Source: an uncultured Candidatus Saccharibacteria bacterium
Lineage (GTDB): Bacteria > Patescibacteriota > Minisyncoccia > Phycocordibacterales > UBA1550
Direction of reading: 5' to 3'
NCBI GenBank assembly: GCA_964642305.1
Contig: CAZXOE010000003.1
Coordinates: 33,685 to 97,684 of the forward strand
Length of the DNA: 64,000 nucleotides
Each line of letters opens with the position of its first letter. The first letter of the stretch is position 1. The notes under the pieces are model-generated. The model made no database searches, was not told where the DNA came from, and saw only the letters and a list, made by a program, of their open reading frames with translations. Positions 14,200-61,270 of the stretch are shown here, in pieces. Position numbers and translations under genes: made by a program.

Positions 14200-14880
14200 T
14201 TACTTAGTAGCGACAGCTGTTGCAAGCTTGCCCTCAATAAAACTAATAGCTTTCTCTGGACTCACAATCACGACGTATTTGTGGTTCAAGAGGTCAATTG
14301 GGTTCATATTTTCCACTGCGTCAAAGTCAATGTTCCCAAAGTTTGAGAAACTCTTTGCAACTGCTTCCGACTTCTCACCTGTCGCAAAGTAAGCAGCGTT
14401 TTTGCGCTTTGTGAGCATCTTTTCAAAGCCCTTAACACCTGCGAGCGCTATAAGGATGCCCTTTGCTTCTGTGGTCTTTGGGGCCTTCATCGAAATTGAA
14501 TCAATGAAAAGGACTTCTCCTTGGCGAAGCTTCTCAGAGAGAACAGTGTAGAGCGCTTTTGCGCGAACTTTCTTGTTGATCTTCTTTGAGTAGTCCTTTT
14601 CATTCATTGGGCCGTGTGTAACTCCACCGTGACGCCAAATAGGTGAACGAGATGAACCGTGACGAGCGCGACCAGTACCTTTCTGAGCCCATGGCTTCTT
14701 GCCACCGCCAGATACTGCACTACGGTCCTTTACCTGTGCTGATGAGGTGCGCGCGTTTGAGCGCATTGACTCCACAACCTGGTGAACCAAGTCTGCATTC
14801 CATGAAAGGCCCCAAACCTTTTCGTTTAGCGCAAGCTTTCCAGCTTCTTTTCCCTTTGTATTGTAAATTGTTGCTTCCAT
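14200..14880 (-). CDS. rplD: 50S ribosomal protein L4
   Basis: KKPWAQKGTGRARHGS L4 signature. Confidence 0.9.
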   Translation of the reverse strand: MEATIYNTKGKEAGKLALNEKVWGLSWNADLVHQVVESMRSNARTSSAQVKDRSAVSGGGKKPWAQKGTGRARHGSSRSPIWRHGGVTHGPMNEKDYSKKINKKVRAKALYTVLSEKLRQGEVLFIDSISMKAPKTTEAKGILIALAGVKGFEKMLTKRKNAAYFATGEKSEAVAKSFSNFGNIDFDAVENMNPIDLLNHKYVVIVSPEKAISFIEGKLATAVATK

Positions 14881-14885
14881 GATAT

Positions 14886-15524
14886 TTATTTAGCAGTTGC
14901 TTTAATCTCGAGAAGCGCGCCCTTCACGCCTGGCACACAGCCAGATACGAGAATCTTCCCATTAGTAGTGTCGACCCCGAGCACACGCAAACCTTTTACG
15001 GTAATACGCTCTCCGCCCATACGTCCGGCCATACGACGACCTTTTGAAATCTTCTGCTGACCTGTTGAACCAATAGAACCTGGCTCACGCTCAGAGTGCT
15101 TTTGTCCGTGAGTACGGCTTCCTCCATGGAAACCATGACGCTTCACCACACCCTGGAAACCCTTTCCCTTTGATGTACCTGAAACAGTAACCTCATCACC
15201 AATTTCAAAAAGTGACGCATCGATAGTGTCGCCTTTCTTCCATGAGCTTGAGTCGTCAACTCGGAACTCGCGGATTGTCATAAAGAGACCGAGGTCCTTT
15301 GTGTGGCCCTGGACTGCCTTTGAGATATTTTTTGCAGCGCGAGTGCCAAAGCCCATTTGAATAGCTTCGTACCCATCACTCTCTTTTGATTTAACCTGTG
15401 TAATAGACACTGGTCCAACAGAAAGAAGGGTTGCAGCCACAGCACGCCCGTCGGAGCCGACGAACGAGAACATACTTTCTTTTTTTCCTAGAATAAATTT
15501 CATAACGGTAACCATTGCAACCAT
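14886..15524 (-). CDS. rplC: 50S ribosomal protein L3 (true start probably MKFILGKK)
   Basis: L3 motifs FEIGDEVTVSGTSKGKGFQGVVKRHGF. Confidence 0.9.
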   Translation of the reverse strand: MVAMVTVMKFILGKKESMFSFVGSDGRAVAATLLSVGPVSITQVKSKESDGYEAIQMGFGTRAAKNISKAVQGHTKDLGLFMTIREFRVDDSSSWKKGDTIDASLFEIGDEVTVSGTSKGKGFQGVVKRHGFHGGSRTHGQKHSEREPGSIGSTGQQKISKGRRMAGRMGGERITVKGLRVLGVDTTNGKILVSGCVPGVKGALLEIKATAK

Positions 15525-19081: not shown

Positions 19082-19246
19082 CGAATTCGCTTCGCTCATA
19101 CAAAAGCGTGGCAGAGACCACGCGGTATTGACCTATATTAGCTCCTCGGCTCGGTACTGAAAAAGATTACTTTTCCAGCACTCTCGCTCTACGTCGCTAA
19201 TAAAGGGCGGTCCTTTTTTAAAAAAGGACTGCCCTTTATTTTTTAG
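19082..19246 (+). repeat. Modular ~150-nt intergenic element, copy 2 (lacks the nested 30-nt repeat) + bidirectional terminator
   Basis: Blockwise identity with 4497-4722; ends in aaagggcggtcctttttt/aaaaaaggactgcccttt hairpin that also terminates fusA. Confidence 0.6.
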
Positions 19247-19250
19247 CTAC

Positions 19251-21395
19251 CTACTTCCTTGCTTCAATAATAGTGAGCGCTACATTTTGAGGCACAATAT
19301 CGTAGTGATCAAACTCCATTGTTGATGAAGCGCGACCTTCTGTCATTGAGCGAAGAGCGGTTGTATAGCCAAACATTTCAGAAAGAGGAACTTGCGCTGT
19401 GAGCACTTTCATCATGCCACGCTCGCTCATTCCTTCGATTTGTGCGCGCTTTGATGAGAGGTTGCCGGCAACGTCACCCATGAACTTCTCTGGCATGACG
19501 ATTTCCACTTTCATGATAGGTTCAAGAATAACTGGACCTGCTTTCTTTACCGCTTCTTGGAATGCCTGAGAACCTGCAATCTTAAACGCGATTTCTGAAG
19601 AGTCCACTTCGTGGAAAGAACCGTCGTAAAGCTCAGCTGAAATATCTACCACCTTGTAGCCTGCCTGCACACCACGGTCCATCGCTTCGATGATACCTTT
19701 TTCTACTGGCGCAATAAATTCCTGTGGAATAACACCTCCTTTAATAGAGTTTGTAAATTCAAAGTGGTCATCGCGACGCTTTGTCTGTTTTGGAAGATCC
19801 TCAACCGCAATAGTCTTGTCGATTGGCTTGATGCGAATCTTCACATGGCCGTACTGACCGCGACCACCTGTCTGCTTGATGTACTTGCACTCTGCTTCTG
19901 CTTCGCGAGTGATAGTTTCCTTGTATGCAACTTGTGGCTTTCCAACGTTTGCTTCCACGTTGAACTCGCGCTTCATGCGGTCTACGAGAATTTCTAGGTG
20001 AAGTTCGCCCATGCCGGAAATAATTGTTTCCATTGTTTCCTCATCGCTTGAAATGCGGAACGTTGGATCTTCGTCTGCGAGCTTCCTAAGCGCCATACCC
20101 ATTCTCTCTTGGTCTGCTTTTGTTTTTGGTTCAATACGCAGAGAGATAACTGGCTCAGGGAATTTAATTTCTTCCAAAATAATTGGGTTTGCTTCATCAC
20201 AAAGTGTGTGTGAAGTACGTGTGTCCTTTAGGCCAACCATCGCCGCAATATCTCCTGCGAAAACTTTTTTAATTTCCTGACGTGAATCCGCCTGAAGTTT
20301 CACCATACGGCCCACGCGCTCCTTGTCGCCAGTTGTTGCATTGTATACATATGAACCTGCTTCTATAGTACCTGAATACACGCGGAAGAAACAAAGCTGT
20401 CCGACGAATGGGTCTGCCTGAAGTTTGAACGCAAGCGCAGTAAAAGGCTCCTTGTCAGATGCATGGCGATCAATTGCATCTCCTGTGCGTGGGTCTATTC
20501 CGTGAATAGCGGGGATATCAAGAGGGGATGGAAGATAATCCACCACTGCGTCGAGCACGAGCTGTACACCCTTATTCTTGAGGGCTGAGCCTGCGTACAC
20601 TGGGAAAATTTCGTTATTGATAACTGCCTTACGAAGATTTGCTTTGAGAACATCCATAGGAATTTCTTTTCCTTCAAGATAGTCGTTCATCAATGTCTCA
20701 TCGTTCTCTACAATACGCTCAATAAGGTCAGCACGGAACTGCTTTGCCTCAGCTAAATATTTCTCAGGGATTTCCGCCTCTTTTACTTCAATACCCATCT
20801 CTCCTTCAAATTTAAACATCTTCATCTTAAGAAGATCGATAACACCTTCAAACTCATCCTCAAGTCCAACAGGAATCTGCATACGAACAGCCTTTGTGTT
20901 TAGTCTATCAAGAATAGATGCGTATGATTTCTCAAATGACGCGCCTGTACGGTCCAATTTGTTAATGAAACAAATACGTGGAACTTTTGCCTCGTCTGCA
21001 TAGCGCCAGTTTGTTTCTGATTGTGGCTCTACTCCTGCAACTCCATCAAAGACCACCACTGCGCCGTCGAGCACACGAAGGGAACGCTTTACTTCTACAG
21101 TAAAGTCGATGTGTCCTGGTGTGTCGATGATATTAAAATGCCAGAGATTTTTCTTATCCTTTGGCTCGTCCGTTTTATTCCACGCGCAACTAATAGCCGC
21201 CGCAGTAATGGTGATACCACGCTCGCGCTCCTGTTCCATCCAGTCGGTTGTGGTTGCACCTTCGTGAACCTCACCAATCTTGTGAGTCATACCTGTGTAA
21301 AACAAAATACGCTCAGACGTTGTCGTCTTGCCTGCGTCGATGTGCGCGATGATACCAAAATTGCGTAGTTTCTCTAACGGATATTCTCTGTCCAT
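19251..21395 (-). CDS. fusA: Elongation factor G
   Basis: AHIDAGKTT, DTPGHIDF GTPase motifs; 714 aa. Confidence 0.95.
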   Translation of the reverse strand: MDREYPLEKLRNFGIIAHIDAGKTTTSERILFYTGMTHKIGEVHEGATTTDWMEQERERGITITAAAISCAWNKTDEPKDKKNLWHFNIIDTPGHIDFTVEVKRSLRVLDGAVVVFDGVAGVEPQSETNWRYADEAKVPRICFINKLDRTGASFEKSYASILDRLNTKAVRMQIPVGLEDEFEGVIDLLKMKMFKFEGEMGIEVKEAEIPEKYLAEAKQFRADLIERIVENDETLMNDYLEGKEIPMDVLKANLRKAVINNEIFPVYAGSALKNKGVQLVLDAVVDYLPSPLDIPAIHGIDPRTGDAIDRHASDKEPFTALAFKLQADPFVGQLCFFRVYSGTIEAGSYVYNATTGDKERVGRMVKLQADSRQEIKKVFAGDIAAMVGLKDTRTSHTLCDEANPIILEEIKFPEPVISLRIEPKTKADQERMGMALRKLADEDPTFRISSDEETMETIISGMGELHLEILVDRMKREFNVEANVGKPQVAYKETITREAEAECKYIKQTGGRGQYGHVKIRIKPIDKTIAVEDLPKQTKRRDDHFEFTNSIKGGVIPQEFIAPVEKGIIEAMDRGVQAGYKVVDISAELYDGSFHEVDSSEIAFKIAGSQAFQEAVKKAGPVILEPIMKVEIVMPEKFMGDVAGNLSSKRAQIEGMSERGMMKVLTAQVPLSEMFGYTTALRSMTEGRASSTMEFDHYDIVPQNVALTIIEARK

Positions 21396-52991: not shown

Positions 52992-53032
52992 AAATCAAAA
53001 GGCCGTCACTCAAAGTGACGGCCTTTTGATTT
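52992..53032 (+). terminator. Rho-independent terminator after hup
   Basis: aaatcaaaaggccgtcac tcaaa gtgacggccttttgattt. Confidence 0.8.
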
Positions 53033-53235
53033 GGTGCGGGTACGGCTCTCGGTCACGGATTACTAAATGTTCTCGCGCGAGTACGCACTGCGAGCATTAA
53101 GTATCCGCTACCCCGCCTCACTGTTGCTTCGCAACATGTTCCGGCTTTCGATTCTCCACGCAAGACGCGCAGGCGTCTTGCTGTACCCGCACCATGCAAA
53201 AATCCTCCAACCAAAATGGTGGAGGATTTTTGCAT
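53032..53235 (-). repeat. tRNA-3'-flank element downstream of tRNA-Gly(UCC)
   Basis: Hairpin 53191-53238 includes the CCA; antisense copy (gtacccgcacca 53182-53193) then hairpin (53160-53181) then antisense T-arm-like ccggctttcgattctcc; spacer; direct repeat tggtgcgggtacgg at 53032-53045 and 53236-53249. Confidence 0.6.
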
Positions 53236-53308
53236 GGTGCGGGTACGGAGAATCGAACTCCGATCAAAGGATTGGAAATCCCTTATTCTACCACTAAACT
53301 ATACCCGC
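53236..53308 (-). tRNA. tRNA-Gly (anticodon UCC), CCA encoded
   Basis: rc folds as cloverleaf: acceptor GCGGGTA/TACCCGC, anticodon loop UUUCCAA, T-arm cggagTTCGATTctccg. Confidence 0.75.
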
Positions 53309-57518: not shown

Positions 57519-57606
57519 AAGAAACGAGGTGTAACAACACTGCTAATTAATCTCTTTTATGGAGATTTCCGCAGAAGTGTTTAGGCACTTCTGGTTAAGG
57601 CTTTAG

Positions 57607-57677
57607 TCGGGGTGCCGAGAATCGAACTCGGCCTATCTGCTCCCAAAGCAGACGTACTACCGATATACTACACCCCG
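57607..57677 (-). tRNA. tRNA-Pro (anticodon UGG), no encoded CCA; leader and trailer extend the acceptor stem
   Basis: rc: acceptor CGGGGTG/CACCCCG, D-stem GTAT/GTAC, anticodon loop UUUGGGA, T-arm ccgagTTCGATTctcgg; flanks gctttagt/actaaagc pair. Confidence 0.7.
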
Positions 57678-57734
57678 ACTAAAGCTTCAACTATATGGAC
57701 GAAATCATAGCACAGATACCAATATTTGCGAATA

Positions 57735-58502: not shown

Positions 58503-59207
58503 GTGCTATACTTTAGAGATATGCGTAAGGACAAAGAGCAAGCAGTTAATCTGCGCAAGCTTGGCAAAAGCTACAAGGAAATTTCAAATGAATTGCGTAT
58601 TCCAAAAAGTACGCTGTCAGAATGGTTTGGCGGTTCAGTGTGGTCGCAAAAAATTAAAGAAAATCTTAACTGCGTTGCTCAGGCAAATAGCACTGTGCGA
58701 ATTATAGAACTCAACAATATTCGTGGAGAGCATCTTGAAAAACTTTATACACAGGCAAGGCTTGAAGCGTTGGAAGATTTTATGGCGCTCAAACACCACC
58801 CGACATTTGTTGCCGGAGTGATGCTGTATTGGGGTGAAGGGGATAAAGCGTCTCTACATCGAGTATCGCTGACAAACACAGACCCAGCAATGATTAAAAT
58901 CTTTATGATTTTTCTTAAAGAAGTCTGCGGGATTAGTGATGAGAAAATTAAAGTATGGCTTCTTTTATACCCAGATCTTCAGGAATCAGATTGCAAGGAA
59001 TATTGGGCAAGGGAAGCTGGTTTACAAAATATAACTTTTAATAAAAGTATTGTGATAGATGGTAGACACAAGACCAAGCGACTAGGGCATGGCGTCTGTA
59101 CTGTTGGTGTTTCTAGTAGATATTTTAAGGAAAAGATGTTATTGTGGATTTCACTATTCCCTGATATGCTTGCTGACGGGGGATTATACAAACAAACGCG
59201 GATATAA
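58503..59207 (+). CDS. HTH-domain protein with possible degenerate LAGLIDADG-like homing-endonuclease fold; 3' end overlaps tRNA-Gly(GCC) by ~10 nt
   Basis: N-terminal HTH LRKLGKSYKEISNELRIPKSTLSEWF; FVAGVMLYWGEGDKASL…LKEVCGI spacing resembles the I-CreI topology. Confidence 0.4.
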   Translation: MLYFRDMRKDKEQAVNLRKLGKSYKEISNELRIPKSTLSEWFGGSVWSQKIKENLNCVAQANSTVRIIELNNIRGEHLEKLYTQARLEALEDFMALKHHPTFVAGVMLYWGEGDKASLHRVSLTNTDPAMIKIFMIFLKEVCGISDEKIKVWLLLYPDLQESDCKEYWAREAGLQNITFNKSIVIDGRHKTKRLGHGVCTVGVSSRYFKEKMLLWISLFPDMLADGGLYKQTRI

Positions 59208-59268
59208 TTTAGTGGTAGAATTCCTCGTTGCCAACGAGAGAGTGGGAGTTCGATTCTCCCTATCCGCA
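59198..59268 (+). tRNA. tRNA-Gly (anticodon GCC), no encoded CCA
   Basis: Acceptor GCGGATA/TATCCGC, anticodon loop TTGCCAA, T-arm gggagTTCGATTctccc. Confidence 0.75.
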
Positions 59269-59270
59269 CA

Positions 59271-59490
59271 TTAACTACAGACCTATGCAACTACGTTGCA
59301 TAGGTCTGTAGTTAACTATTCTATGGTTAGGGAGAATCGAACAGGAGGGGGTCGGGGAACCTACGGTTCCCCGTGGAGGAAGGAATGGGAAAACCGTGGG
59401 TTTCCCAGGAGTGAGATAGCGGAGCGTCTCCCTATCCGCACATCACACAGAAAAACCTCAAGGATATCCTTGAGGTTTTTCTGTGTGATG
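59271..59490 (+). repeat. tRNA-3'-flank element downstream of tRNA-Gly(GCC)
   Basis: 21-bp perfect hairpin 59271-59315; antisense tagggagaatcgaac 59328-59342; direct repeat tctccctatccgcaca at 59427-59442 (cf. tRNA 59255-59270); terminal hairpin 59441-59490. Confidence 0.6.
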
Positions 59491-59655
59491 TGCCCCCGCC
59501 AGGATTCGGTCCCGAGTTTCTAGTTCGTTTCACTCACAAGAACTCGCGACCCCGGCTCGCTGTCGCGATGCGACATACTCCGCCTTTCGAATCCTGACAC
59601 AAGCCAAGCAGTTGGCTTGTTGCGGGGCACAAAAAATGCGCCCAACGATTTTTTG
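59489..59655 (-). repeat. tRNA-3'-flank element downstream of tRNA-Arg(UCG), same architecture
   Basis: +strand gcggggcaca (antisense of 3' end) at 59622-59631, hairpin acaagccaagcagttggcttgt, antisense T-arm-like cctttcgaatcctgac; direct copy of 21-nt 3' end at 59489-59510. Confidence 0.55.
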
Positions 59656-59726
59656 TGCCCCCGCCAGGATTCGAACCTGGAACACCGGTTTCGAAGACCG
59701 AGATGATATCCATTTCACCACAAGGG
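59656..59726 (-). tRNA. tRNA-Arg (anticodon UCG), probable; acceptor stem has two G-U pairs
   Basis: rc: GCCCTTG…CGGGGGC acceptor, D-stem GTGA/TCAT, anticodon loop CTTCGAA, T-arm ccaggTTCGAATcctgg. Confidence 0.55.
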
Positions 59727-59797
59727 CATTGTATGATGACTGTACAGCAAATATGGTCAAAAGGCAAAAAAAACTGTATGATTTCAGTACTTAGATA

Positions 59798-61270
59798 ATG
59801 ACAAAGATTGATTACAACGTTCCAGAGGAAGTTTCACGTGTAACCGAAACCTTGCGAGACGCAGGGTTTGAGGCGTATCTTGTTGGCGGATGCGTGCGTG
59901 ATATCTTGCAGGGAATTAAGCCAAAGGATTGGGACGCCACTACAAATGCAACTCCTGAGCAGATCCAGGCGCTATTTGAGAATTCTTTTTACGAAAATGA
60001 CTACGGAACGGTTGGTATTGTTAATGAAACAGAAGATGAAACATTAAAGGTTGTGGAGGTCACGCCATACCGCAGTGAAGGCGCATATACTGACAAACGC
60101 CGCCCAGACAGTGTTTCGTTTCACGGGAAACTAGATGAAGACCTAAAACGCCGTGATTTTACTATAAATGCTATTGCTTATGATGAATCTAAAGGACATC
60201 TAACGGACATTCATGGTGGTCTAAAGGACATAAAGGACAAAGTAATCCGTACAGTAGGTAATCCGGTAGAACGTTTCAATGAAGACGCTCTCCGTGTTCT
60301 TCGGGCTGTTCGCCTAGCAACTGATCTCGGTTTCACTATTGAAGCGGAGACACAGAATGCGGTAGTTGAGAAAGCAGGGGACCTGAAACACATCTCTATG
60401 GAACGCATCCGTGACGAATTCACAAAAATGATAATGACAAAAAATCCTATGGTAGGAATTGTGATGTGTCAGAAACTTGGTCTTCTAAAATATATTGCCC
60501 CGGACATTGAGAGGGGAATTGATGTTGAACAAAACGGCGATCACATTTACACAGTGTGGGAACACAACTTGCGCGCGCTTCAACACTCTGCAGATCGCGA
60601 GTGGCCTTTACACGTGCGACTCGCATCGCTCCTTCACGATGTTTCAAAACCAGAGACACGCAGATGGTCTGAAGAAAAAAATGATTGGACTTTTTATGGT
60701 CACGATGTAGTTGGCGGACGCGTTGCAAAAAAAGTTCTTGAACATCTGAAATATCCTAAAAAAATTGTTGAGGTTGTTTCTGCACTCGTACGTTACCACT
60801 TATTTTTTTCTGACATAGAGAAAATAACACTCTCTGCTGTGCGTCGCATTGTTAGAAACGTTGGGCCTGACAATGTGTGGGATTTGATGAAAGTTCGCGC
60901 CTGCGATCGCATTGGAATGGGCCGCCCAAAGGAAGCGCCATACCGTTTGCGCAAATATGAATCAATGATAGAAGAAGCCATGCGCGCGCCAGTGTCTGTG
61001 GGAATGCTCAAGATTGATGGGCAAAAAATAATGGAGGTTACACGTGAAACACCGGGACCAAAGTTAGGATTTATTCTCCACGCGCTTCTTGAAGAGGTGC
61101 TTGATGATCCAGAGAATAACACAGAAGAGTTTCTCGTGAAACGCACGCTTGAGCTTACGAAACTTCCGATTGATGAATTAAAGAAGCTCGGCGAGGAAGG
61201 GAAAGAGGCAAAGGAAGAGGAGGAAGAAAAAGAACTCGCAGAAATCCGCAAAAGACACGGGGTGAAGTAG
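59798..61270 (+). CDS. cca: CCA-adding enzyme / tRNA nucleotidyltransferase with HD domain
   Basis: Pol-beta head motif LVGGCVRD; HD domain HD…H; Glu/Lys-rich tail. Confidence 0.85.
   Translation: MTKIDYNVPEEVSRVTETLRDAGFEAYLVGGCVRDILQGIKPKDWDATTNATPEQIQALFENSFYENDYGTVGIVNETEDETLKVVEVTPYRSEGAYTDKRRPDSVSFHGKLDEDLKRRDFTINAIAYDESKGHLTDIHGGLKDIKDKVIRTVGNPVERFNEDALRVLRAVRLATDLGFTIEAETQNAVVEKAGDLKHISMERIRDEFTKMIMTKNPMVGIVMCQKLGLLKYIAPDIERGIDVEQNGDHIYTVWEHNLRALQHSADREWPLHVRLASLLHDVSKPETRRWSEEKNDWTFYGHDVVGGRVAKKVLEHLKYPKKIVEVVSALVRYHLFFSDIEKITLSAVRRIVRNVGPDNVWDLMKVRACDRIGMGRPKEAPYRLRKYESMIEEAMRAPVSVGMLKIDGQKIMEVTRETPGPKLGFILHALLEEVLDDPENNTEEFLVKRTLELTKLPIDELKKLGEEGKEAKEEEEEKELAEIRKRHGVK

Follow-up and report, generated by a model that had tools for sequence, protein, structure and literature searches.

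What occupies the 150-200 nt directly 3' of three of the four transfer RNA (tRNA) genes in a 64-kb stretch of contig CAZXOE010000003.1, from an uncultured bacterium, is the question addressed here; "the window" refers to this stretch as a whole. The original prediction had described a tripartite arrangement behind the tRNA genes for Gly(UCC), Gly(GCC) and Arg(UCG), and had offered a miniature mobile element, integration and excision scars, or a processing or regulatory structure as candidate explanations. The reading that we favour, with a probability of about 0.6, is that each of the three loci holds a small insertion element of about 150-200 bp, non-coding, non-autonomous and site-specific, of a kind confined to the 3' ends of tRNA and transfer-messenger RNA (tmRNA) genes of Paceibacteria and mobilised via a folded site. 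The family to which these elements belong is apparently both widespread and undescribed.

The tRNA genes were called with ARAGORN and the Rfam tRNA model, whose threshold all four reach (58-70 bits), and repeats and palindromes were located with a repeat finder. On the tRNA strand, the three occupied loci have the layout tRNA[X_a] - hp1 - X' - (hp2) - T' - core - X_b - native terminator-like palindrome, in which X_a and X_b are the proximal and distal copies of the tRNA 3' end, hp1 is a hairpin, X' and T' are antisense copies of the acceptor and of the T-loop and T-stem, hp2 is a 9-bp hairpin and the core spans about 80-100 nt. The direct copies are exact over 14, 17 and 20 nt at Gly(UCC), Gly(GCC) and Arg(UCG), with spacings of 203, 172 and 165 nt, respectively; by chance, a given 14-mer would recur within 350 nt with an expectation of about 1e-6. 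A perfect palindrome begins at or inside each tRNA 3' end; its arms measure 27, 21 and 14 nt in elements 1, 2 and 3. The long hairpins and the direct copies of the original prediction were borne out at all three loci, as was the resemblance of the repeats to attachment (att) sites, since they run from the T-loop to the 3' end and flank the insert with the gene left intact. Its antisense copy split by a small hairpin stood only in part. In loci 1 and 3, hp2 interrupts the inverted copy at the equivalent of the junction between tRNA positions 65 and 66; this hairpin is an optional feature, missing from locus 2 and from several relatives. The inserts hold no conserved open reading frame (ORF). 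A coding reading of the ORFs at 53053-53235 (-) and 53067-53297 (+) was rejected: they overlap the hairpins, and relatives differ by insertions and deletions.

The arrangement recurs in this clade and is not special to the window, as follows from counts of both the antisense and the direct copies in relatives. The comparison set comprised 80 related loci of Paceibacteria (Candidate Phyla Radiation, CPR), which together with the window amount to 1.22 Mb; the window comes from a genome of Candidatus Yonathbacteria within this group, and the neighbouring RNase Y is 95% identical to that of Candidatus Yonathbacteria UBA12043. Scored as the best match to the 12-nt T block within 150 nt, an antisense T block of at least 10/12 was found downstream of 39/116 tRNAs in the 80 loci, with a bimodal distribution of scores, against 1/116 over the same distance upstream. 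For 31 of the 129 tRNAs in the window and its relatives, 12 nt or more of the 3' end recur exactly 85-280 nt downstream, a count that leaves out strain duplicates and includes 6 other tandem or partial duplications of tRNA-Pro. The antisense copy is nearer to the tRNA than the direct copy in these relatives, and exact 3'-end matches upstream reached only 5-8 nt, tandem tRNA genes excepted. In the window, the direct repeats are 100% identical, and the inverted copies of elements 1 and 2 match at 88% and 94%. The pattern lies far beyond what chance would produce, in keeping with the original prediction.

A covariance model of one type of core (R1, built on the class A core defined below) was run on the window and the 80 loci and then on a second locus set. 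It gave 24 strong matches in the 1.22 Mb, all of them immediately downstream of a tRNA and on its strand; inside the window it matched elements 1 and 3 only. All 39 matches in the second set lie behind tRNA or tmRNA genes or within tandem arrays; a match at L241 lies behind a tRNA-Arg(GCG) (L-numbers denote loci fetched from relatives and metagenomes). A metagenome scan with the hp2 sequence pattern yielded about 28 genuine elements. The metagenomic copies follow tRNA-Gly (UCC, GCC and CCC), Arg (UCU and GCG), Lys, Ser, Asn and Gln genes and also tmRNA genes, whose 3' end reads ...CAUCUCCACA. Altogether the layout is present in about 60 copies; the elements are small, non-coding and present in multiple copies within and between genomes.

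The outer design is common to at least three classes of core. From T' to X_b, class A, to which window elements 1 and 3 belong, reads GAAUCGAA-AGCCGGAG-P3-CGAG-GCGGGGUCGCGAG-P4-GUGAC-CGAUUC, where P3 and P4 are hairpins; class B (L038, L043) reads GAAUCGAA-GCCCGAUUGAG-hairpin-CAAUCGGGGUACUGA-5-bp stem with a UGUAA-type loop-UUCGAUUC; class C comprises window element 2, L016, L065 and L288-292. Elements 1 and 3 share the same folded architecture (fold z-scores in Table 1). With 39 class A copies aligned on the model, 94.3% of the cells are paired and 20/21 pairs show compensatory changes; none of 500 shuffles reached this, and slid controls were at most 46% paired. Class B shows compensatory changes in 14/20 pairs. 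The folds, whether of RNA or of DNA, are well supported by this covariation. The core is homologous across different tRNAs and across genomes whose GC (guanine plus cytosine) fraction runs from 0.31 to 0.57. In 20/22 copies the tRNA-sense strand of the core is more stable than its complement (mean -4.9 kcal/mol, p = 1.5e-4), and the cores hold 15 G-U pairs against 8 A-C pairs; the folded strand is therefore the tRNA strand, and base composition may add to the asymmetry. When tRNA and element are folded as one RNA, the inverted arm sequesters the 3' half of the tRNA, which agrees with the precursor duplex that had been proposed, and the distal repeat pairs with the 5' acceptor strand. Given these pairings, the locus can just as well be seen as a tRNA whose T-loop holds a large insertion, which supplies a replacement 3' end and a terminator.

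Orthologous spacers differ in what they contain. The spacer between tRNA-Gly(UCC) and the HU gene is strongly variable among relatives: in L006 it is empty, holding a single hairpin between tRNA and HU; the window has a class A element that includes hp2; L005, which shares 95% RNase Y identity with the window, has one that lacks hp2 and has an unrelated hp1; L288-292, where the tRNA sequence equals that of L006, carry a class C element; and L008 carries a degenerate class A element. L005 and L288 have homologous hairpins 3' of the distal repeat, as do the window and L008, and in both pairs hp1 and core differ. The inserted unit therefore consists of hp1 - X' - (hp2) - T' - core and a single copy of X, and hp1 arrives with the element. 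Occupancy is patchy, as 11/25 loci with at least three tRNAs have no element and others have up to 4/5 of their tRNAs occupied, and tandem or nested arrays are frequent (L051, L055, L028, L029, L087, L230, L241, L275). Of the explanations first offered, the tRNA-targeting miniature mobile element fits the patchy occupancy of orthologous sites, the exchange of classes, the tandem arrays, the restriction to tRNA and tmRNA genes and the lack of coding sequence.

A well-folded core next to a tRNA could also belong to a structured non-coding RNA, produced from the tRNA strand by read-through or processing, with a closing helix that imitates an acceptor/T-arm minihelix and is cut by tRNA-processing enzymes; its function might be cellular or serve the element, and it could coexist with mobility. 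The strong covariation of the core and the greater stability of the tRNA-sense strand speak for it, as do the helix (P1) formed by the 5' arm and the distal repeat in element 3 and many class A and B copies, the position of hp2, precisely at the point from which the D and anticodon arms of a tRNA would branch off, and the way in which distal repeat and native terminator reproduce the end of a tRNA gene. The comparison with the tRNA-like domain of tmRNA, with viral tRNA-like structures and with mascRNA is apt insofar as the inverted arm and the distal repeat can form an acceptor/T-stem-like helix, with a side hairpin in place of the D and anticodon arms; unlike these, the present element has no T-loop, is not seen by tRNA or tmRNA models and has an incomplete helix in some subtypes. 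Indeed, ARAGORN and the tRNA and tmRNA models found nothing tRNA-like in the element, and Rfam at its gathering score returned only the four tRNAs over the whole window, and at E<=10 palindrome-driven microRNA noise in both element regions. Ribozyme motifs (hammerhead and others) were rejected by eye and with Rfam. Moreover, hp1 in most copies resembles an intrinsic terminator standing between tRNA and element, no promoter-like site was found inside the elements, and in the E1 subtype and class C no pairing of T' with the distal repeat is possible. Turnover of classes at one site, absence from many close relatives and, in some subtypes, incomplete closing helices disfavour a host function. The processing or regulatory role of the original prediction fares no better, since there is in addition no gene to regulate downstream on the same strand: element 1 faces the convergent HU gene and elements 2 and 3 face each other, for which reason a cis-regulatory leader or T-box-like element was also rejected. 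On balance we consider a non-coding RNA unlikely as the explanation of these loci; a role for RNA made by the element itself is possible.

The edges of the repeats and the origin of the arms bear on how the elements came to lie where they do. In 22 copies the direct repeat spans tRNA positions 54/60 to 74 and measures 14-22 nt. Its right edge is sharp at position 74 in 11/22, with the gene-encoded CCA included where present, and its left edge depends on the class of core: 56 in class A, 54 or 57 in B, 60 in C and A', and about 62 in the E1 subtype. Such edges fit a block of identity between the element copy and the gene, and poorly fit a fixed staggered cut. At 19 genes that lack an encoded CCA, the antisense copy carries TGG in 0/19 and mirrors the gene's own 3' flank in 10/19; TGG appears only where the gene encodes CCA. 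The inverted copy thus mirrors the gene and not the mature tRNA, which argues against priming or templating by mature tRNA.

The inverted copy is also borne by the element, because the arm in L005 retains an A where its own tRNA and both repeat copies have changed. The two elements of L012 share about 90% of hp1 and the core junctions, and each has a 17-nt inverted arm and a distal repeat perfectly matched to a different tRNA; the two elements of L043 have an identical 57-nt core and different arms. The hp2 of element 1 recurs identically at other metagenomic tRNAs, and identical hp2 hairpins stand at many different tRNAs and at tmRNA, flanked by arms suited to each, in a set gathered with the hp2 pattern; the gap from X' to T' is 25 nt in many relatives. 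As near-identical scaffolds carry arms for different tRNAs, the target-matching segments change as units while the scaffold is conserved. The change could take place at insertion, or later by conversion from the adjacent gene across the palindrome and between the direct repeats.

Copies of a tRNA end in forward, reverse and forward orientation could in principle arise with no mobile element at all, by template switching during replication at a palindromic terminator. The direct-inverted-direct order with hairpin spacers is what fold-back switching is expected to leave, the inverted copy mirrors the flank of the gene and never the mature CCA, and the arms are often perfect. The spacer between the copies, however, is a conserved core with homologs at different tRNAs and in genomes of widely differing composition, and hp2 is the same at many tRNAs; independent errors would not remake the same 100-nt structured sequence. 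As the sole cause, template switching is contradicted by core homology and we regard it as very unlikely; as the step that re-templates the arms it is possible.

Equally familiar at tRNA genes are the attL-proximal remnants of integrase-bearing islands or prophages whose remainder was later deleted. Direct repeats from T-loop to 3' end are the classical signature of tRNA-targeting integrases, and tmRNA is a classical target as well, but the uniform size of the inserts, the completeness of both repeat copies and the conserved internal structure, with its covarying pairs, are at odds with scars of integration and excision, which we hold to be most improbable here. Nor were larger, cargo-bearing relatives met within the fetched flanks. 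Copies of tRNA 3' ends in 10-kb flanks were limited to cross-matches between the two tRNA-Gly genes and outlined no larger island, and no distant second repeats were found at the metagenome loci. The original remark that the islands come without an integrase agrees with the Pfam scans. No recombinase, integrase, transposase or reverse transcriptase was present among the best 25 of 69 families for 64 window ORFs, nor among the best 25 of 88 families for 74 ORFs beside metagenomic copies, where housekeeping families were found instead, and no element contained a gene for a site-specific recombinase.

Scarcely credible is a retroelement-like origin, in which the antisense segment would be a primer-binding site for a mature tRNA 3' end, as in long-terminal-repeat retroelements, or a reverse transcriptase would start on tRNA-like 3' ends: the segment complements the last 12-24 nt at the 3' end of the tRNA, and in element 1 it starts with TGG, but the count of TGG and of mirrored flanks at CCA-less genes largely contradicts a primer-binding site, no reverse-transcriptase family was among the best 25 listed for nearby ORFs, and group II introns are reported absent from Patescibacteria in a paper on their group I tRNA introns at position 35/36, which are unrelated to the elements (PMC13011429).

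We return to the reading as site-specific insertion elements. The segment from the T-loop to the 3' end is the class of site used by tRNA-targeting integrases. On our proposal, this segment of tRNA and tmRNA genes would be the attachment site, and insertion a site-specific strand exchange bounded by homology within it, performed by an enzyme encoded elsewhere, outside the element, and keeping the tRNA intact. In a circle or single strand of the element (tRNA-sense), its own X would pair with X' and T' to form a long hairpin tipped by hp1. Such a hairpin would reproduce the target as a duplex in which hp2 bulges out as a marker, the core would close the other end, and strand exchange within X would give X_a - hp1 - X' - hp2 - T' - core - X_b. 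When the folded attP(+) of phage CTXphi recombines with dif, the product has the order site - loop - inverted site - body - site, and integron attC sites follow a similar logic. An imperfect inverted repeat that can fold into the target duplex, together with this same order, is present at our loci (repeats I1, I3 and I4; fold of tRNA plus element), and the order would be the product expected of folded-site integration. By analogy, the elements would work most like integrators with a folded attachment site.

The known systems may be compared point by point. Elements with tyrosine integrases that target tRNA and tmRNA genes (T-loop sublocation), and their integrase-less, cis-mobilizable (CIME-type) derivatives, also insert in the 3' part of the gene, generate a direct repeat from the T-loop to the gene end, leave the tRNA intact and accrete in tandem; the present element differs in being gene-less and only 150-200 bp long, in its internal inverted attachment copy and covarying folded core, and in having one scaffold at many tRNAs with matching arms and no partner integrase found. 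Integrative mobile elements exploiting Xer (IMEX) of the CTXphi type, and attC sites, share with it the imperfect inverted repeat that folds into the target duplex, the integrated order and a structure kept more than sequence, and the hp2 bulge on one arm is comparable to extrahelical bases or a forked stem. Here, in contrast, the target is the 3' end of a tRNA or tmRNA and not dif or attI, a role of Xer or IntI and a single-stranded form are hypothetical, and the element is far smaller than a phage and is no gene cassette.

Miniature inverted-repeat transposable elements (MITEs), Correia, RUP, ERIC, REP/BIME and Rickettsia palindromic elements are likewise small, non-coding, multi-copy, hairpin-forming, non-autonomous and patchily distributed. 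The present element differs from these in standing strictly at tRNA and tmRNA 3' ends, in its duplication of 14-22 nt with a class-dependent left edge in place of a short one of fixed length, and in an inverted arm that copies the target and not a transposase-binding end. No terminal inverted repeats of the MITE type were present, the start of hp1 and the end of the core not being mutual inverted repeats, and no autonomous partner was found. Casposon or Cas1-type insertion was rejected: the element has neither genes nor terminal inverted repeats, and the length of its duplication varies where 14-15 bp would be fixed. With the bridge RNA of IS110/IS1111, the exon- and intron-binding sites (EBS/IBS) of group II introns and the omega RNA of IS605 the element shares a folded non-coding scaffold (about 100-180 nt) with copy-specific target-matching segments. 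It differs from these guide carriers in lacking a recombinase, reverse transcriptase or nuclease gene, in a match made up of one unbroken helix (at most about 24 nt) and a direct copy in place of loop-borne guides, and in arms apparently templated by the adjacent gene.

Searches for the elements elsewhere gave little. Nearly all matches to two core motifs of 15-16 bases in IMG/VR were due to chance, and the covariance model confirmed a single real tandem array, L087; element 3 had no BLAST match in 50,697 phage records. In a literature search of incomplete coverage we found no paper describing such elements, so that an earlier description elsewhere is possible. Within these limits, and with no Rfam match, no described family was found for them, in line with the original prediction, which recognised none.

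Several points weigh against reading the loci as mobile elements. Neither a free, circular or single-stranded form nor filled and empty alleles within one population were seen: a strain comparison through the HU protein P0129 gave five copies of the same element, one single-nucleotide polymorphism apart, and no empty allele. No candidate enzyme was identified. The element sits between two terminator-like hairpins, and a scan for promoters and terminators revealed no promoter-like site within it. In the E1 subtype and in class C, T' and the distal repeat do not pair. The counts of covariation come from related sequences in alignments that were fitted to the model. Whereas the direct repeat is exact as a rule, the acceptor part of the inverted copy often departs from a perfect copy, and a base-pair match of that part is therefore not strictly required. 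Finally, a change of target needs two segments of the element to change together, for which simple integrase recombination is not enough; gene conversion across the palindrome and between the direct repeats, or some other templating step, must be assumed.

A bolder form of the proposal, which we judge unlikely, would make these programmable insertion elements: a folded scaffold with two arms, one complementary and one identical to the last ~20 nt of the target gene, that are re-templated on the new target whenever the element moves, mobilised as a folded single strand of DNA, possibly RNA-derived, by an enzyme of the host. If this were true, the elements would put the CTXphi/attC and bridge-RNA principles to work without any gene of their own, at the most conserved sites of a reduced genome.

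Table 1. Features of the occupied tRNA loci, with window positions, strand, and the evidence or details for each.
Feature	Position	Strand	Evidence and details
Terminator-like bidirectional palindrome (term2), common with convergent HU gene	52992-53032	.	I2; homologous hairpin in L008; native flank, outside the insertion (same logic for L005/L288)
Element 1 distal direct repeat X_b, CCGTACCCGCACCA	53032-53045	-	tRNA positions about 62-76; D1 100%, = 53235-53248
Element 1 class A core, AGCCGGA-hairpin P3-GAGGCGGGGUAGCGGA-long hairpin P4-GUGAC	53046-53141	-	R1, fold, covariation; R1 match 53034-53157, 86.5 bits; fold z = -5.9
Element 1 T', antisense T-loop + T-stem 3' strand, GGAGAATCGAA	53142-53158	-	I4, 16 nt (53142-53157) 88%; 11/12 match
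Element 1 hp2, 9 bp, GCAAGACGC-CUGC-GCGUCUUGC	53160-53181	-	sequence, fold; between antisense acceptor and T-arm parts
Element 1 X', antisense acceptor copy	53183-53194		part of palindrome 53183-53246
Element 1 hp1, A-tract/T-tract hairpin	53195-53234		part of palindrome 53183-53246
Element 1 long palindrome, 27-nt perfect arms, 10-nt loop	53183-53209 / 53220-53246	.	inverted repeat I1; includes the final 12 nt of the tRNA with the antisense copy of these
tRNA-Gly(UCC), CCA encoded; last 14 nt = proximal repeat X_a	53235-53308	-	ARAGORN; Rfam tRNA 70.1 bits; repeat D1
tRNA-Pro(UGG)	57606-57677	-	ARAGORN, Rfam; no element downstream
tRNA-Gly(GCC); 3' end = proximal repeat 59255-59271	59198-59269	+	ARAGORN, Rfam, repeat finder
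Element 2 hp1, 21-nt perfect arms, 3-nt loop	59271-59315	+	I2
Element 2 inverted copy: degenerate acceptor part, then contiguous 18-nt antisense (59325-59342)	59316-59342	+	I3, 94%; no hp2; 18-nt block antisense to T-loop/T-stem/acceptor start
Element 2 class C core (..GGGGAACC..GGUUCCCCGUGGAGGAAGG..GGGAAAACCGUGGGUUUCCC..GAGUGAGAUAGCGGAGCG)	59343-59426	+	same class in L016, L065, L288-292; fold
Element 2 distal direct repeat, 17 nt	59427-59443	+	tRNA positions 60-76; D2 100%, = 59255-59271
Perfect palindrome, 28-nt arms, common to convergent elements 2 and 3; native terminator-like flank	59438-59493	.	I1; outer ends = ends of distal repeats of elements 2 and 3
Element 3 distal direct repeat, 20 nt	59489-59508	-	tRNA positions 56-75; D1 100%, = 59654-59673
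Element 3 class A core	59509-59585	-	R1 match 59490-59596, 89.5 bits; fold z = -7.1
Element 3 T', antisense T-loop/T-stem (antisense T-arm 59586-59596)	59586-59599	-	I6; 11/12 match
Element 3 hp2, CAAGCCAAC-UG-CUUGGCUUG	59600-59619	-	sequence, fold
Element 3 antisense acceptor copy (59620-59630) + hp1 palindrome	59620-59661	.	I4; hp1 arms 14 nt, perfect, 59624-59637 / 59648-59661, including the last 7 nt of the tRNA
tRNA-Arg(UCG); 3' end = proximal repeat copy	59655-59727	-	ARAGORN, Rfam, repeat finder

Some observations on the surroundings of the elements stand apart from this argument. The two native palindromes of Table 1 (the first with 19-nt arms, the second with 28-nt arms and no loop at all) are perfect, contain A- and T-tracts and lie between convergent genes; by their sequence they are terminator-like sites that may serve both directions. 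A gene for the CCA-adding enzyme (59798-61270, +) adjoins tRNA-Arg(UCG); most tRNA genes of the clade have no encoded CCA, and the tRNA-Gly(UCC) of the window does. Immediately 5' of tRNA-Gly(GCC), the ORF at 58503-59207 is a member of a large, uncharacterised, HTH-LAGLIDADG-like family of Paceibacteria whose genes lie directly upstream of tRNA genes in 14/16 fetched copies. The presence of this family does not track that of the 3' elements, and its product is a candidate tRNA-gene-directed DNA-binding protein or nuclease. At tRNA-Pro(UGG), the flanks (GCTTTAG and CTAAAGC) lengthen the acceptor stem by 7 bp (region 57598-57685), and a hairpin 3' of the gene, TTAACCAGAAGT...ACTTCTG, is kept in locus L065. 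Other 3'-end duplications come with no inverted copy, all of them at tRNA-Pro genes: a repeat of 18 nt or more in L065 (gene at 14862-14933) runs into the flank and lies 176 nt downstream, a 32-nt partial tRNA duplication lies 73 nt downstream in L037 (gene at 19205-19276), and L024 and L034 hold tandem genes for tRNA-Pro isoacceptors.

The hp2 pattern also matches a GC-rich (~0.62) sequence in about 65 contigs, many of them labelled as human gut (e.g. L192, L193, L195), where the same palindrome with a 9-bp stem, GCAAGACGC-CCCG-GCGTCTTGC, stands in an identical context across many contigs and is unrelated to the CPR elements. In L194, L242 and L283 the end of an RNA gene (...TTCGAAC...CCCCGAGC), which ARAGORN did not call, lies about 150 nt upstream of the hp2 match. 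This gene may be a tRNA-Asn or tRNA-Asp split by a group I intron, as reported for Patescibacteria; the inverted arms at these three loci (GCGAGCGGAGAGGGA, CGGGATGAGAAA) match the adjoining gene poorly. Several contigs of the same or related species end in or beside elements: L002 ends 206 nt past HU, L004 starts 372 nt before the CCA-enzyme gene, and L293, from the strain comparison, stops at the element. Repeated tRNA-end segments and palindromes appear to break short-read assemblies.

CPR bacteria (Patescibacteria) have tiny genomes, in which mobile DNA is believed to be scarce. In one clade of these bacteria, about one in three of the sampled tRNA genes bears a gene-less parasite, or else a domesticated element, 150-200 bp long, which standard annotation overlooks. 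The elements are useful as strain-level markers of genome dynamics in bacteria that are not cultivated. If they move via their own folded attachment site, the principle known from CTXphi and attC would reach tRNA genes, and at minimal size. If the arms are truly re-templated, the elements would point to a simple natural means of programming insertion to a chosen site of ~20 nt.

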